This document shows, in pieces, positions 29,953-44,786 of a stretch of 64,000 bases of DNA (positions are counted from its first letter, which is position 1; every line of letters begins with the position of its first letter). The stretch covers positions 78,607 through 142,606 of the forward strand of contig JBAXXQ010000001.1 in NCBI GenBank assembly GCA_037127795.1, written 5' to 3'. Position numbers and translations under genes: made by a program. The notes under the pieces are model-generated. The model was not told where the DNA came from. It saw nothing but the letters and a program-made list of their open reading frames with translations, and made no database searches. This stretch comes from a bacterium. Lineage in GTDB: Bacteria; Patescibacteriota; Minisyncoccia; Phycocordibacterales; UBA9973.

Positions 29953-30095
29953 GGTAGGGTAGGAATCGCTTCTCGATTCGTTCGAAACAAATCTCTCGGT
30001 AGGAATCGCTTCTCGCCGCTGGTGCGGCTCGAAACAAAAATCTCTCATCGAGATTTTTGCCTACGGTTCGATTCCTACTATCGAAAAACATATAA
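29953..30095. repeat. tandem (2.5x) and inverted partial copies of the 3' end (T-arm/acceptor) of the adjacent tRNA-Arg(GCG)
   Basis: ggtaggaatcgcttctcg...tcgaaacaaa(a)tctctc repeated at 29958 and 30000, matching tctctcggtaggaatcg of the tRNA 3' end; inverted ggttcgattcctac at 30067-30080. Confidence 0.7.
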
Positions 30096-30133
30096 TAAAA
30101 AATACCCACGAACGTGAGTATTTTTTATTATTG

Positions 30134-30205
30134 TCCTCTCGGTAGGAATCGAACCTACATCGCATCTTCCGCAAAGATGCGTCCTATCCATTGAACGACG
30201 AGAGG
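30134..30205 (-). tRNA. tRNA-Arg (anticodon GCG; C1-G72 first pair)
   Basis: Reverse complement CCTCTCGTCGTTCAATGGATAGGACGCATCTTTGCGGAAGATGCGATGTAGGTTCGATTCCTACCGAGAGGA: 7-bp acceptor, D and T arms, anticodon loop UUGCGGA. Confidence 0.7.
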
Positions 30206-35761: not shown

Positions 35762-35785
35762 AGAGATAAGTATATAAGTAATAAA

Positions 35786-36061
35786 TTAAAATAACCAATT
35801 TAGACTAGGTACTGATTTAATTTTTTCATCATAAATATTTCGATTTTTTTTATTTAACCAAGGAGAATTTTTGTCGTTATATATGAAAAAGGTATCATTA
35901 TGTTCATTAGTTTTAATTAAGGTAATTTCTTTTTCTGTTATTGTTATATCATTTTGAATAGTTACGTAGTCTCTATTAAAACAAATATATTTATTTGATT
36001 CTATTTTTTTAAAACCATAGGGCATTTTTTCTCGGTAAAGCTTCTCGATAGATTTCTGCAT
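35786..36061 (-). CDS. hypothetical protein
   Basis: 91-aa ORF. Confidence 0.3.
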   Translation of the reverse strand: MQKSIEKLYREKMPYGFKKIESNKYICFNRDYVTIQNDITITEKEITLIKTNEHNDTFFIYNDKNSPWLNKKNRNIYDEKIKSVPSLNWLF

Positions 36062-36075
36062 ATTTTTATAAAAAA

Positions 36076-36273
36076 TTACTTTATACCTACGATTTTTTTA
36101 ACCTTATCGCTTTTTTTACCGTCTTTCCATAGGTGGGTTTTACCAAGACCGCTACTTACAGTTATTATAATAATAAGTGGAAACCAATAGTGACTATCAA
36201 TAGATCCCGCAAAAGATATATAGACTATAGTATATATTAAGACACAGGTTATTGTAATAGATATTTTGTTCAT
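36076..36273 (-). CDS. small membrane protein (hypothetical)
   Basis: 65 aa, two hydrophobic segments. Confidence 0.3.
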   Translation of the reverse strand: MNKISITITCVLIYTIVYISFAGSIDSHYWFPLIIIITVSSGLGKTHLWKDGKKSDKVKKIVGIK

Positions 36274-36386
36274 ATAATTTAGTATATTTCTTTATTATAT
36301 AAAAATCAATCAATACAACAATATTGGTGAGATTCGGTCACGAATCACTAAATATTTTTATTCATAAAATTCTAAAAATATAAAGT

Positions 36387-36466
36387 GTTCGCGACCCCGC
36401 CTCAGCGCTGTATCGCCTCCCAGGCGCGCGCTTCCGGTTTTCTCATATCGCACATTCCGAGTAGAT
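36387..36466 (+). ncRNA. candidate small structured RNA (unclassified), GC-rich core 36387-36437
   Basis: ~75% GC over 51 nt (gttcgcgaccccgcctcagcgctgtatcgcctcccaggcgcgcgcttccgg) in an AT-rich genome; alternative cgcc/ggcg pairings; followed by terminator. Confidence 0.25.
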
Positions 36467-36467
36467 A

Positions 36468-36505
36468 CTAAAAAACACTATCAGAAGATAGTGTTTTTTA
36501 GTATT
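36468..36505. terminator. bidirectional terminator (candidate sRNA / tRNA-Ser)
   Basis: aaaaaacactatcagaagatagtgtttttt perfect 9-bp stem. Confidence 0.75.
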
Positions 36506-36506
36506 G

Positions 36507-36593
36507 CGGAGGTGGTGAGATTCGAACTCACGGTACGGTTCCCCATACGACTGTTTTCAAGACAGTTGCCTTCAACCACTCAGCCACACCTCC
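36507..36593 (-). tRNA. tRNA-Ser (anticodon UGA), long variable arm
   Basis: Reverse complement GGAGGTGTGGCTGAGTGGTTGAAGGCAACTGTCTTGAAAACAGTCGTATGGGGAACCGTACCGTGAGTTCGAATCTCACCACCTCCG. Confidence 0.85.
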
Positions 36594-39963: not shown

Positions 39964-40035
39964 GCCCTTGTAGTTCAATGGATAGAACTGCGGACTTCTA
40001 AGCCGTTAATCTAGGTTCGATTCCTAGCGAGGGCA
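39964..40035 (+). tRNA. tRNA-Arg (anticodon UCU)
   Basis: GCCCTTGTAGTTCAATGGATAGAACTGCGGACTTCTAAGCCGTTAATCTAGGTTCGATTCCTAGCGAGGGCA; anticodon loop CUUCUAA. Confidence 0.85.
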
Positions 40036-40208
40036 CAAAGCATGTAGAGCAGGTGAACTGCTTCACCTGCGAATGCTTTGTGCGGGCGCAGGTATGCCGG
40101 TAGGCAACCGAGCCGGGGTCGCGAGTACTTAGTATAAATACGATCCACCAATAGGTGGAGAAGTATTTTACTTAGTAACTTGTGACCACAAATAATTTTA
40201 AAGAGCAT
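40036..40208 (+). other. 173-nt structured inter-tRNA spacer (candidate ncRNA or processing element)
   Basis: Nested 8+8-bp hairpin caaagcat..caggtgaa-ctgc-ttcacctg..atgctttg (40036-40080), GC-rich segment with GCC-GGUA-GGC hairpin, then ccacc-aata-ggtgg. Confidence 0.3.
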
Positions 40209-40280
40209 GCGCTCTTAGCTCAGTGGTAGAGCAGCGCTTTTACACAGCGAAGGTCGGGGGTTCAAATCCCTCAGGGCGCA
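40209..40280 (+). tRNA. tRNA-Val (anticodon UAC)
   Basis: GCGCTCTTAGCTCAGTGGTAGAGCAGCGCTTTTACACAGCGAAGGTCGGGGGTTCAAATCCCTCAGGGCGCA. Confidence 0.85.
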
Positions 40281-40286
40281 CAAAAT

Positions 40287-43834: not shown

Positions 43835-44236
43835 ATGTATATATATCTTGGATTGATTTGTACGCTTGCAGGAGTTTGGATTTCTCATAAATTGTATATG
43901 GGGAAGCGTGGCAAAGTGAAGCTTGCCTGCCCACGAGAGGGTAGTTGCGATATTGTGCTCCATAGTACTCACTCAGAGCTTTTTGGAGTAGGAAATGAAA
44001 CCTGGGGGCTCTTGTATTTTTCTTTGGTTGGACTTGTTCTTGCGACACTCATACTTCGTATCAGTAGCACTATGGTACACCTTGCTTTGTTTTTTACTAC
44101 AGGTGGTATTTTGTATAGTTTGTATCTTATATATATACAAGCAGGGATTTTGAAAAAATGGTGCTGGTGGTGCGTGTCTGTTGCGGGGATAAATTTTATT
44201 TTATGGAGTAGTGTTATTTTGTGTAGTATTAGATAG
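43835..44236 (+). CDS. vitamin K epoxide reductase (VKOR)-family membrane thiol oxidoreductase
   Basis: Loop Cys pair (CPREGSCD) and TM CWWC (CxxC), 4 TM helices. Confidence 0.55.
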   Translation: MYIYLGLICTLAGVWISHKLYMGKRGKVKLACPREGSCDIVLHSTHSELFGVGNETWGLLYFSLVGLVLATLILRISSTMVHLALFFTTGGILYSLYLIYIQAGILKKWCWWCVSVAGINFILWSSVILCSIR

Positions 44237-44237
44237 T

Positions 44238-44786
44238 ATGTTGTATACAGGAAAGGGGGATAGTGGTACTACAAAATTATTTAACACGCCGTCTGGTGAG
44301 CGTATTTCAAAAACGAGCCCTGTATTTGATGCGCTCGGTACTACCGATGAACTTGTTGCACATGTAGGATATTTGAAAGTGCTTGTTTCTAATCATACAG
44401 AAAAAGTATTGGATAAAAATCTTGCGATAATACTGCACGAAGTACAAGAATCTCTTTTTGTTATCCAGGCACAGTTGGCGGGAGCGGCTATGCCGCTCCC
44501 GCCCCAAAAGGTGGCTGATCTCGAAGCACTCACCAATGCAATAGAAACCACCTTGCCACCTATTATCACCTTCTTTATCGCTGGTGGGACCCAAGAGGCA
44601 GCCTTCGCAGATATCTGTAGGACTATCGCAAGACGCATGGAACGTGATATATTACGTGCGCAGGCGCCTCTAGTAGAAGAATCTACCTACGCCTACACAA
44701 ATCGTCTTTCGAGCCTTTTTTACGCCCTCGCTAGACTTTTGAACCACATTTCTGGTATAAAGGAGGAACCCCCGACATATTCTTGA
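44238..44786 (+). CDS. ATP:cob(I)alamin adenosyltransferase, PduO-type
   Basis: MLYTGKGDSGTTKLF N-terminus typical of PduO/MMAB family. Confidence 0.7.
   Translation: MLYTGKGDSGTTKLFNTPSGERISKTSPVFDALGTTDELVAHVGYLKVLVSNHTEKVLDKNLAIILHEVQESLFVIQAQLAGAAMPLPPQKVADLEALTNAIETTLPPIITFFIAGGTQEAAFADICRTIARRMERDILRAQAPLVEESTYAYTNRLSSLFYALARLLNHISGIKEEPPTYS

Follow-up and report, generated by a model that had tools for sequence, protein, structure and literature searches.

Several described systems come close to the structure reported here. Elements integrated in tRNA and tmRNA genes, the subject of Williams in Nucleic Acids Res in 2002, reportedly use a T-loop sublocation, and their att sites reportedly duplicate the segment from the T-loop to the 3' end of the gene. 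REP/REPIN sequences, which RAYT transposases mobilise, and MITE-like repeats (Correia, ERIC, RPE) are short, non-coding, multi-copy and intergenic, lie at gene 3' ends, and combine conserved strand-specific hairpins with strain turnover and no enzyme of their own. A further group consists of tRNA mimics (the tRNA-like domain of tmRNA, viral 3' TLS, YrlA/Y RNA, mascRNA), with mascRNA and MEN-beta being cut from a longer transcript by tRNA-processing enzymes, while class C bacterial group II introns and integron attC sites insert by terminator hairpins or fold single-stranded. The Patescibacteria (CPR), with genomes of about 1 Mb, have few known non-coding RNAs. Their published tRNA introns are group I introns, recognised by group I models and placed in the anticodon loop (35/36), and group II introns are reported to be absent from the phylum (PMC13011429).

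The locus studied here lies in a stretch of 64,000 nucleotides, hereafter the window, and three elements in it, copies A, B and C, form together with their relatives elsewhere an abundant Patescibacteria family that sits behind tRNA and tmRNA genes and has no entry in Rfam 15. Searches of the openly accessible literature found no description of the element. The original prediction had singled out a G+C-rich block at 36387-36437 as an isolated candidate for a small RNA. The quoted sequence matches these positions exactly and is indeed far richer in G+C than its surroundings, at 74.5% compared with 36.7% for the whole window, which ranks it first among 63,950 segments of 51 nt (z = 4.3). It is not isolated, as a homologous copy accounts for the GC island that ranks second in the window (40075-40125); local alignment of the two islands, which share a motif between copies A and B, gave the first sight of the family. 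A search for repeats of the block elsewhere in the window with up to three mismatches returned none. That no ORF covers the block is inexact, in that a mechanical 31-aa ORF (36358-36453, minus strand) overlaps it; that ORF has no support as a gene, and the block is non-coding and part of a conserved nucleic-acid structure. The element to which it belongs is not a solitary sRNA gene but a member of a tRNA-linked repeat family with many copies, and very probably the block is the P2 arm and junction of copy A, a true minus-strand member. The parts of copy A and of the gene upstream of it are these:

36506..36593, minus strand: tRNA-Ser(UGA), anticodon tga (ARAGORN; Rfam tRNA model, 59.6 bits).
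36513-36523, minus strand: DR1, the tRNA-Ser sequence from T-loop position 57 on, GAATCTCACCA, template of the direct repeat that closes the element.
36465..36504, minus strand: trailer hairpin ACUAAAAAACACUAUC-uucu-GAUAGUGUUUUUUAGU, from predicted folds, with A and U tracts on its flanks.
36318..36460, minus strand: copy A, a three-way junction of P1, P2 (with hairpin) and P3 (cmsearch 83.3 bits, E = 2e-26, model positions 1-142).
36441..36459, minus strand: decayed anti-repeat CGGAAUGUGCGAUAUGAGA, remnant of the complement of the tRNA-Ser 3' end (sequence compared with the family consensus).
36433..36440, minus strand: shortened J1/2 (AAA for UCGAAA), P2 5' strand (ACC for G-N-C) and internal-loop GGA (CM alignment).
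36404..36432, minus strand: P2 hairpin AGCGC-G-CGCC-UGGGA-GGCG-AUACA-GCGCU, the G+C-rich heart of the flagged block (CM and MFE fold).
36395..36403, minus strand: junction motif GAGGCGGGG, comprising internal-loop GA, P2 3' strand GGC, J2/3 GG and the start of P3; the middle P2 pair covaries in the family.
36336..36396, minus strand: P3, a long hairpin with G+C-rich base GGUCGCGAAC.../...GAUUCGUGACC, A+U-rich stem and loop 36360-36373 (folds and CM).
36325..36335, minus strand: DR2, GAAUCUCACCA, 11 nt that repeat tRNA-Ser in direct orientation from T-loop position 57, equal to 36513-36523 and forming the P1 3' strand.

Copy A spans 143 nt downstream of tRNA-Ser in the same orientation, and it displays the family arrangement of a same-strand tRNA directly upstream, a trailer hairpin in between, and a direct tRNA copy from nt 57 right after ...GUGACC. 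The CM that detects it was built from 80 other members with the window copies left out, and on the plus strand at copy A the same search gives only a 13-bit echo over one near-palindromic hairpin, contrary to the earlier view of a plus-strand small RNA. Folded alone, copy A adopts the three-way junction in both the MFE and the centroid prediction (-48.7 kcal/mol, z = -4.5). The "mutually exclusive, switch-like" cgcc/ggcg pairings proposed from the sequence are not needed, since both the family structure and the MFE fold of copy A have CGCC/GGCG as the P2 hairpin tip, and ggcgg belongs to the junction motif. The P3 base and the GGA/GA loop agree exactly with the GGUCG(C/A)GA/U(C/U)GUGACC consensus, and the window contains a 12-nt exact self-match between 36325-36336 and 36513-36524. 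P2 reads A-C-C/G-G-C, with two of its three pairs standard and the first an A-C. A typical member would be expected to have a P1 of at least 6-7 bp whose anti strand ends in ...UC, followed by J1/2 GAAAG; copy A keeps 5 bp, UGAGA (36441-36445) with UCUCA of the downstream repeat, and AAA as J1/2; its CM alignment shows non-canonical P1 pairs, and the MFE fold closes the junction with extra A-U pairs. All family parts are present in copy A, but P1 and J1/2 are eroded.

The perfect hairpin noted near the block, aaaaaacactatc-agaa-gatagtgtttttt, is there as described, with arms at 36467-36482 and 36487-36502 that can be extended to 36465-36504, and it begins 28-30 nt after the block. What had been called a bidirectional terminator is the trailer hairpin listed above; it lies upstream of the element, between tRNA-Ser and copy A, rather than at its end. 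In the sibling strains L001/L006 this hairpin carries three compensatory double changes (U-A to C-G, A-U to C-G and A-U to G-C) and is therefore a genuine conserved structure, and a comparable hairpin stands 3' of the tRNA in the other family members read. A simple terminator scan missed it because its stem has too few G-C pairs.

A motif drawn from the block was searched in GTDB genomes and in JGI metagenomes, and it matched at least 120 stretches in the former and at least 120 in the latter; nearly all named records among the matches listed are Patescibacteria. Also among the matches listed, 176 of 262 copies have a tRNA or tmRNA on the same strand within 300 nt upstream (median gap 103 nt), none of the 262 has one on the opposite strand, and the upstream tRNAs cover more than 35 anticodons. 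Across 100 loci, chosen for carrying the element, the CM finds 145 matches, and 97 of the 158 tRNAs there are followed by one; intact members score 20-116 bits, and elements of the family measure about 110-170 nt. Directly after the core comes a direct repeat, a copy of the last ~18 nt of the upstream tRNA, which begins at tRNA nt 57 in the T-loop in 60 of 75 placed copies. Its left border is fixed at this nucleotide and its right border varies from 11 to 119 nt, with a median length of 20 nt compared with 11 nt for DR2 of copy A. No ORF lies between the tRNA repeats, and clustering of 1,836 ORFs from stretches of ~8 kb around elements gave no recurrent family of neighbouring proteins, nothing recombinase-like, and no integrase, transposase or reverse transcriptase that recurs; six cluster representatives compared with Pfam were housekeeping or unknown proteins. 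A RuvX protein query found no match in the genome contigs. Among 2.9 M viral contigs the motif matched once, in G+C-rich coding DNA, which we take as chance.

The window holds its three copies behind three of its seven tRNAs. Copy C is degenerate or divergent, with P3 nearly missing. The features of the two further copies are:

40036..40193, plus strand: copy B (subtype 2), between tRNA-Arg(UCU) 39964-40036 and tRNA-Val 40209-40281 (cmsearch 53.2 bits, E = 4e-16).
40036-40080, plus strand: trailer hairpin of copy B.
40077-40082 with 40187-40192, plus strand: P1 of copy B, UUUGUG with CACAAA.
40091-40109, plus strand: P2 hairpin of copy B.
40110-40118, plus strand: junction motif of copy B, GAGCCGGGG.
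40117-40187, plus strand: P3 of copy B.
29960..30132, minus strand: copy C, behind tRNA-Arg(GCG) 30133-30205 (cmsearch 9.9 bits, E = 0.19, weak alone and backed by its anatomy and the copy of the tRNA 3' end).
30092-30132, minus strand: hairpin of copy C.
30070-30080, minus strand: anti-repeat of copy C, UAGUAGGAAUC.
29993-30007, minus strand: repeat of copy C, GAUUCCUACCGAGAG, a copy of the tRNA-Arg 3' end.
29960-29974, minus strand: further partial tandem repeat of copy C.

On the tRNA-sense strand the family folds into a three-way junction P1/P2/P3 with the conserved junction nucleotides UCGAAAG-N-CGGAG ... GAG-N'-CGGGG-UCG(C/A)GA ... U(C/U)GUGACC, although much of the apparent invariance of this core is imposed by the search pattern, and CM matches outside the pattern show that the core varies. 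P1 is formed by the direct copy of the upstream tRNA 3' end, which runs from T-loop position 57 over the 3' strands of the T-stem and acceptor stem, paired with a complementary "anti" strand. The covariation check suggested for the locus gave a strong signal: pairing fills 87.7% of the cells compared with 69.4% in shuffles and 31-40% with the partners slid, and covariation scores 0.505, a value reached by 0 of 500 shuffles, against 0.167. The middle P2 pair N:N' (n=80) occurs as GC 29, AU 23, CG 22, UA 5 and GU 1 times, the base of the P2 arm (pairs 36-38 with 82-84) is 94% paired with all three pairs changed on both sides across the family, and in P3 seven of 14 pairs have changed on both sides. 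Where the search pattern left positions of P2a and P3 free, G-U pairs (36) far outnumber A-C (5), so the tRNA-sense strand is the folding strand; single-stranded DNA folded on this same strand would give equal covariation and G-U bias. P1 behaves differently along its length, with a pairing of 0.8-0.9 in the first 7 bp and 0.3-0.5 beyond. In the outer, acceptor-like part G-U is about as common as A-C (70 vs 60), and since this part is poorly kept as well, there is no general selection to imitate a minihelix over its full 12 bp. At sites that distinguish the tRNA from its downstream copy, the anti strand shows no preference between the two (70 vs 65).

The failure to recognise SRP RNA, tmRNA or RNase P RNA in the block holds, and it extends to every other Rfam 15 family, 6S RNA, riboswitches and sRNAs among them. 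At gathering score, the block region and intact members return only tRNAs. At E <= 10 the block gives only chance matches driven by the terminator or the tRNA, including the Bacteroides sRNA BTnc231, which reaches 24 bits against a gathering score of 80 and rests on the terminator and an A/T-rich lead, and a permuted tmRNA at 9.5 bits; copy B and intact members likewise return tRNAs and chance matches only. ARAGORN finds no tmRNA in the window. By eye, consensus features rejected SRP RNA, tmRNA (including permuted forms), RNase P RNA and 5S rRNA, the lack of a cloverleaf rejected an unusual or intron-bearing tRNA, and the hammerhead core motif is absent, with no self-cleaving ribozyme family of Rfam matched.

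Set against described systems, the element shares its targets with tRNA/tmRNA-integrated elements, and in both the intact gene has behind it a displaced direct repeat of its own 3' part (~18-20 nt) that begins in the T-loop, another subtype is located at the extreme 3' end of the tRNA, and the region behind the tRNA is strain-variable. Here, however, the repeats enclose only ~130-200 nt without an integrase or ORF, and no tyrosine or serine integrase lies inside or adjacent; the enclosed DNA is a conserved three-way-junction fold, the anti strand adds the tRNA 3' end in inverted orientation, and one core stands behind more than 35 tRNAs while being nearly absent from viral contigs. With REP/REPIN and MITE-like repeats the family has in common all the properties named above, being multi-copy, non-coding, structured and strain-variable, but it differs in its strict tie to tRNA/tmRNA genes in one orientation, in a closing helix built from a copy of the neighbour gene, in a three-way junction instead of a simple palindrome, and, unlike REP/REPIN, in having no RAYT-like partner identified in the ~8-kb stretches around elements. 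Like the tRNA mimics it has a helix that imitates the acceptor/T-arm and ends in the discriminator of a real tRNA, and it may likewise be a substrate of RNase P, RNase Z or the CCA-adding enzyme, yet it lacks a mimic of the T-loop, D-arm or anticodon arm, with the T-loop replaced by the junction and two arms, its acceptor-like part is poorly conserved, and no tRNA-like family of Rfam matches at the element. As with class C group II introns and attC sites it lies just past a terminator-like hairpin and has a structure specific to one strand, which makes recognition through a folded single strand conceivable; at ~140 nt it has neither the domain V or VI nor the reverse transcriptase of group II introns, and it is accompanied by no integron integrase or cassette array. 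The group I introns of Patescibacteria tRNA genes resemble it in phylum, in gene class and in being self-folding RNAs missed by standard annotation, whereas the element lies outside an intact tRNA, at ~140 nt, and matches no intron model of Rfam.

On balance we lean slightly towards the reading that copy A belongs to a tRNA-coupled family that has an RNA role and spreads by recombination. Its function is probably that of a tRNA-coupled RNA that also spreads as a repeat, and the particular role and mode of spread outlined here are offered tentatively, at rather less than an even chance. In this scheme transcription started at the tRNA promoter would run on past the trailer hairpin and yield the element RNA, although this hairpin with its U tract may end most transcripts before the element. 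P1 would imitate the stacked acceptor/T-arm "minihelix" of the upstream tRNA, with the three-way junction in place of the T-loop, and the transcript may pass to the enzymes that process tRNA ends (RNase P, RNase Z, CCA-adding enzyme) or, alternatively, to a protein that binds the tandem-G.A hairpin tips. Spread and turnover beside tRNA genes would need no enzyme of the element's own and would come about through recombination or duplication confined to the stretch between T-loop and tRNA 3' end; the target-like direct repeat, the tandem and truncated copies and the exchanged arms would all follow from this. That the scheme gives no account of an anti strand matching more than 35 different tRNAs counts against it. 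A bolder version, which we regard as speculative and unlikely, is that this is a previously unrecognised tRNA/tmRNA-coupled element in which an RNA or ssDNA junction sits in a minihelix of a fresh tRNA 3' copy and its complement, and which propagates behind almost any tRNA without its own enzyme, for instance by templated target-copying insertion or through a small circular intermediate recombining in the segment from T-loop to 3' end.

Whatever the family does, copy A itself could be a decaying relic without present function in a strain-variable patch (35775-36465) behind tRNA-Ser, a reading that has a substantial chance of being right though we hold it somewhat short of even. Its shortened J1/2 and 5-bp P1 may render it non-functional, and the A-C first pair of P2, an anti strand only loosely complementary to tRNA-Ser and the short downstream repeat point the same way. 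So does its history among near-identical sibling strains: copy A is absent from L001-L009, lost entirely in L001/L006 and reduced to stumps or remnants in L002/L004 and L003. Against decay, its score of 83 bits is mid-range for intact members, its predicted fold reproduces the family structure cleanly, and it is identical in three to four independent assemblies.

The family as a whole might instead be selfish non-autonomous mobile DNA, of REP/REPIN or MITE-like or miniature integrative type, that inserts at the T-loop (56/57) or at the tRNA/tmRNA 3' end, with the fold serving as an ssDNA or recombinase scaffold for an enzyme encoded elsewhere and with no RNA function; we consider this possible but rather unlikely. 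Its multiple copies behind many different tRNAs and tmRNA would fit, as would the target-like repeat with its fixed left and variable right border and the neutral decay of outer P1. Turnover is equally suggestive, with presence, absence and decay of the element among strains whose flanks are 95-98% identical. The ortholog of copy B occurs in L017/L018, has shifted to a site behind tRNA-Val in L019 and is missing from L020. Copy A and the L017 copy at the tRNA-Arg site have the same P3 stem, from which the window's own copy B at this site differs; the L017 copy is a chimera of a B-type P2 and an A-type P3. Second copies are tandem and 3'-truncated at variable points, which rules out simple tandem duplication; a fold-back (snap-back) origin of the long repeats is ruled out by L059, in which the hairpin loop is copied direct, not inverted. 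The sense strand of genes co-directional with the fork is the lagging-strand template, where ssDNA transposons act (IS200/IS605 biology), and the element strand is the sense strand of the tRNA genes. This reading is weakened by the lack of any transposase, integrase or reverse transcriptase recurring near elements, by the near-absence from viral contigs, and by the need for the anti strand to be adapted to more than 35 tRNAs, for which we know of no enzymatic precedent. A clean empty site for the seemingly "young" L059 insertion was not found, and an old orthologous copy appeared instead; the comparison also revealed an inversion of the tRNA-plus-element module. This copy, behind tRNA-Phe, is kept in the L059 and L264 lineages across a divergence deep enough that a neighbour protein is only 56% identical, and although the core has diverged, its anti strand has kept ~16 nt of complementarity to the tRNA 3' end, with P1 maintained. 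Several Patescibacteria lineages with ~1-Mb genomes carry the family, which suggests retention over mere parasitism.

Two further readings of the locus are very improbable. An independent plus-strand sRNA would start upstream of 36387 and be terminated by the hairpin at 36465-36504, whose A and T tracts could terminate both ways; the plus-strand fold is stable (-49 kcal/mol, z = -7.4), mostly through that hairpin, and weakly resembles the Bacteroides sRNA mentioned above. It is opposed by the 83 bits of the minus strand compared with 13 on the plus strand, by a G-U bias that marks the tRNA-sense strand, by the fixed orientation (176 same-strand neighbours against 0 among the matches listed), and by a plus strand in which no promoter-like site was found at 36300-36387. 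A riboswitch or cis-regulatory leader of the minus-strand, membrane-like 65-aa ORF at 36076-36273, which starts 45-50 nt past copy A, is no more plausible: conserved junction nucleotides and a P1 with an alternative pairing partner do resemble aptamers, but the ORF lies in the strain-variable patch and matches nothing in Pfam, the next gene after copy B is another tRNA, and across ~240 loci no downstream gene family recurs (the largest neighbour cluster has 16 members, on either side), which leaves the upstream tRNA as the constant partner. That the block is a foreign G+C-rich scrap or an assembly artefact without structure or family, as its unusual composition and an L010 assembly that breaks exactly at it might suggest, is already refuted by an identical sequence in three to four independent assemblies including L010-L012 and by the CM match and the hundreds of homologs with covariation.

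The tRNA-coupled family places a conserved structure behind more than half of the tRNA genes in the element-bearing loci sampled. If it is transcribed as RNA from tRNA precursors, it would represent an abundant new RNA class tied to tRNA maturation and would account for many of the G+C-rich "orphan" islands that lie between CPR genes. Should it be mobile instead, it would target or copy the segment from T-loop to 3' end of tRNAs without a recombinase of its own, for which we know of no clear precedent, and propagation without an element-encoded enzyme, if true, would give a phylum of minimal genomes a novel mode of mobility or processing that is linked to biology's most conserved hairpin. In practical terms, the element marks strain-variable spots behind tRNA genes, and the tRNA 3' fragments that it makes can mislead genomic-island finders and break assemblies; besides the break of L010 at the block, a contig of L263 ends at or next to an element.

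The most G+C-rich 51 nucleotides of the window were located at 36387-36437, where the original prediction had placed them (74.5% G+C against a window mean of 36.7%; z = 4.3), and no credible ORF runs over them. The neighbouring hairpin proved to be as described (arms 36467-36482 and 36487-36502), as did the tRNA-Ser(UGA) beside it (36506-36593, minus strand). The block sequence is identical in three further independent assemblies, which rules out an assembly artefact. Searching Rfam 15 at the gathering score returned seven tRNAs in the window and nothing else, and at E ≤ 10 the block region gave only chance matches driven by hairpins or tRNA. At 36325-36336, 12 nt of the tRNA-Ser T-loop/T-stem recur exactly, in direct orientation. 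The block had been taken to be isolated, yet its minus strand shares the motif GAG-N-CGGGGTCGCGA..ACTT..TATA with the second-richest GC island of the window (40075-40125), with an alignment score of 28 versus 15.8 ± 2.1 for shuffles. Both belong to a repeat family that we define here as a tRNA-trailing three-way junction (helices P1, P2 and P3, with J for the junction strands), and which has three copies in the window:

36460..36318, minus strand: copy A, holding the block; full length for the covariance model of the family (83.3 bits, E = 2e-26)
40036-40193 overall, 40085-40187 by the model, plus strand: copy B, of subtype 2 (53 bits)
29960-30132, minus strand: copy C, behind tRNA-Arg(GCG); weak for the model (9.9 bits)

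The block thus lies in a minus-strand copy of a family that is structured, linked to tRNAs and very common. The block spans copy A's P2 strand and loop, P2 hairpin, junction motif and P3 base, and the sequence of copy A folds by itself into the family junction. The proposal of a candidate small RNA was therefore partly right in spirit; the strand, the borders, the isolation and the role given to the hairpin were wrong. Copies A and B each lie downstream of a tRNA on that tRNA's strand, copy B filling the spacer between tRNA-Arg(UCU) and tRNA-Val(UAC), and in both the sequence continues as an extended A+U-rich hairpin that GGUCGCGA.../...GUGACC closes. In copy A, which is eroded, J1/2 reads AAA, P2 opens with an A-C pair, P1 comprises 5 bp and the repeat downstream spans 11 nt; this copy may, tentatively, be a relic under whichever view of the family is taken. 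Copy C is degenerate: it has an anti strand, a P2 arm and a very short P3, 15 nt are copied from the 3' end of tRNA-Arg, and GAGAAGC-GATTCCTA occurs twice as an additional partial tandem repeat.

Family members were collected with the pattern GAG-N-CGGGGTCG-N-GA-N(25-55)-T-N-GTGACC, which matched at least 120 stretches in GTDB species genomes and at least 120 in JGI metagenomes, where a rough estimate gives a few tens of chance matches per collection. Named records among the matches listed are almost all Patescibacteria, including Saccharibacteria, Paceibacterota and Nomura-, Yonath-, Kaiser-, Adler-, Taylor-, Moran- and Yanofskybacteria. The same pattern found a single match in 2.9 M viral contigs, in G+C-rich coding DNA on a stretch without a tRNA. 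A same-strand tRNA or tmRNA lies within 300 nt upstream of 176 of the 262 pattern copies listed (median 103 nt to the motif), and none of the 262 has an opposite-strand tRNA as its nearest upstream neighbour within that distance. The upstream partners of these copies comprise more than 35 anticodons and three tmRNAs. The elements at loci L048, L122 and L142 stand behind tmRNA genes, not tRNAs. A covariance model built from 80 members identified 145 copies in 100 GTDB loci, where 97 of 158 tRNAs are trailed by a copy, a sample biased by the choice of loci with at least one. The family is absent from Rfam 15, and no description of it was found in the searchable literature; it appears to be undescribed, phylum-wide and of real interest.

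On the tRNA-sense strand, the tRNA is followed by a hairpin between A and U tracts, and then by the complement of the tRNA's 3' part, called the "anti" strand, and by J1/2 (UCGAAA). In P2, G-N-C pairs with G-N'-C; beyond these pairs come a GGA/GA internal loop and a hairpin that varies. J2/3 is GG. The long hairpin P3 has GGUCG(C/A)GA/U(C/U)GUGACC at its base and, in many copies, GAGCGA(A/C)GCGA(A/G) at its tip. Abutting GUGACC is a direct copy of the tRNA, which begins at T-loop position 57 in 60 of 75 placeable cases (median length 20 nt). The anti strand and this copy form the closing helix P1, which puts the junction where an acceptor/T-arm minihelix would have its T-loop. At L059, a Saccharibacteria-like locus with the non-palindromic T-loop TTCGAGC, the anti strand truly complements the contiguous 3' segment, rather than repeating the 5' strands of the tRNA itself. 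The tmRNA-trailing elements fit recognition or copying of the T-arm, as the part common to tRNAs and tmRNA. Subtype 2, including copy B, is placed right at the tRNA's 3' end, and its short P1 derives from the start of the trailer (CACAAA). The tRNA genes read in the window and at some family loci mostly lack an encoded CCA, and many run ...N73-C-A-(A)n after the discriminator; the CACAAA that starts the trailer there is what subtype-2 elements duplicate.

The fold was assessed on a MAFFT alignment of 80 members, several of whose "invariant" columns are imposed by the search pattern. Paired cells amount to 87.7%, versus 69.4% in shuffled alignments and 31-40% with partners slid, and the covariation score is 0.505 versus 0.167 shuffled, a value reached by 0 of 500 shuffles. 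Both sides change in 23 of 32 pairs; the middle P2 pair alone occurs as GC (29), AU (23), CG (22) and UA (5). Matches of the model beyond the pattern vary truly, and one sub-family has a different, compensated P3 base. At the P2a and P3 positions left free by the pattern, G-U outnumbers A-C by 36 to 5; the tRNA-sense strand is therefore the one that folds, as RNA or as single-stranded DNA.

To one side of the tRNA-Ser are genes for RuvX, a tRNA-binding protein and PilM; to the other are those for dihydroorotate dehydrogenase and a phosphoglycerate-mutase-family protein. Together they identify the organism as Patescibacteria-like. In strains with a 98% identical RuvX and an identical or nearly identical tRNA-Ser, the DNA left of the tRNA is wholly different: a GrpB-like gene, or SET-domain, glyoxalase and OLD-family nuclease genes, or a methyltransferase. 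Compared with L001, the closest long scaffold, the window-specific patch is 35775-36465 and includes the block. It encodes two small ORFs, of 65 aa (probably membrane) and 91 aa, for which Pfam gave no match beyond a weak sub-threshold DUF3258 in the latter. This patch looks like a gene-exchange hot spot adjoining the tRNA. Next to an identical tRNA, the tRNA-Ser trailer hairpin (36465-36504) and its L001 counterpart (2792-2830) have diverged at three of 16 bp, each time by a compensatory double substitution, so selection acts on the hairpin itself.

Across the sibling loci L001-L009 the model found no copy behind tRNA-Ser. L002 and L004 appear to retain a stump (anti strand plus GAAC), as does L003 (junction motif fused to ACC-GAUU). 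At the tRNA-Arg site of relatives, L017 and L018 have a copy, L019 has a stump (GTGAGA-GC-ACCAC) and a copy behind tRNA-Val instead, and L020 has none, with a spacer of 14 nt. The P3 stem is the same in copy A and in the L017 copy, whereas copy B differs from the L017 copy in P3 and shares its P2 hairpin; arms have thus been exchanged between copies. Repeats range from 11 to 119 nt, the longer ones entering the spacer and even a second copy, cut at a variable point. The tRNA-Phe element is orthologous in the L059 and L264 lineages (neighbouring protein 56% identical): its anti strand still complements the tRNA end over ~16 nt, and the cores have diverged (105 versus 34 bits). Between these related Saccharibacteria-like lineages, the module of promoter, tRNA-Phe and element is inverted (L059 3713-4066, L264 1813-2273); the inversion lies in L059, where 46 nt of tRNA 3' end and terminator are repeated at the inverted segment's gene-proximal edge. 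One assembly (L010) ends within copy A, and contig L263 ends 24 nt past a tRNA-Phe at which related contigs carry the element; both ends fit an assembly-breaking repeat.

We tentatively favour a reading in which read-through from the tRNA promoter would yield an element RNA whose P1 imitates the tRNA acceptor/T-arm end, and on which tRNA-processing enzymes, or a protein binding the tandem-G.A tips, could act, the family having perhaps spread by recombination within the T-loop-to-3' segment. Its main rival, only somewhat less likely, is a miniature element, integrative or of single-stranded DNA, that is purely selfish and relies on a putative enzyme in trans. When the 1,836 ORFs lying no more than 2.5 kb from an element, at about 240 loci, were clustered all against all, no family occurred in more than 16 loci, and there was no integrase, transposase or reverse transcriptase. 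The recurrent neighbours identified, by Pfam or by reading, are housekeeping: translation GTPase, pseudouridine synthase, ribosomal protein L19, CCA-adding enzyme, RbfA and UPF0102. The RNA reading and the selfish-element view are compatible, not exclusive.

A Saccharibacteria MAG encodes a LOOT RNA (L039 3852-3985, plus strand; Rfam RF03000, 64.5 bits) at a distance of ~3 kb from a tandem pair of elements, to which it is probably unrelated. The third-richest GC spot of the window is a perfect G+C-rich palindrome, GGCGGGAGCGGC-TAT-GCCGCTCCCGCC (44478-44507, plus strand), within a 191-aa ORF (44211-44786).
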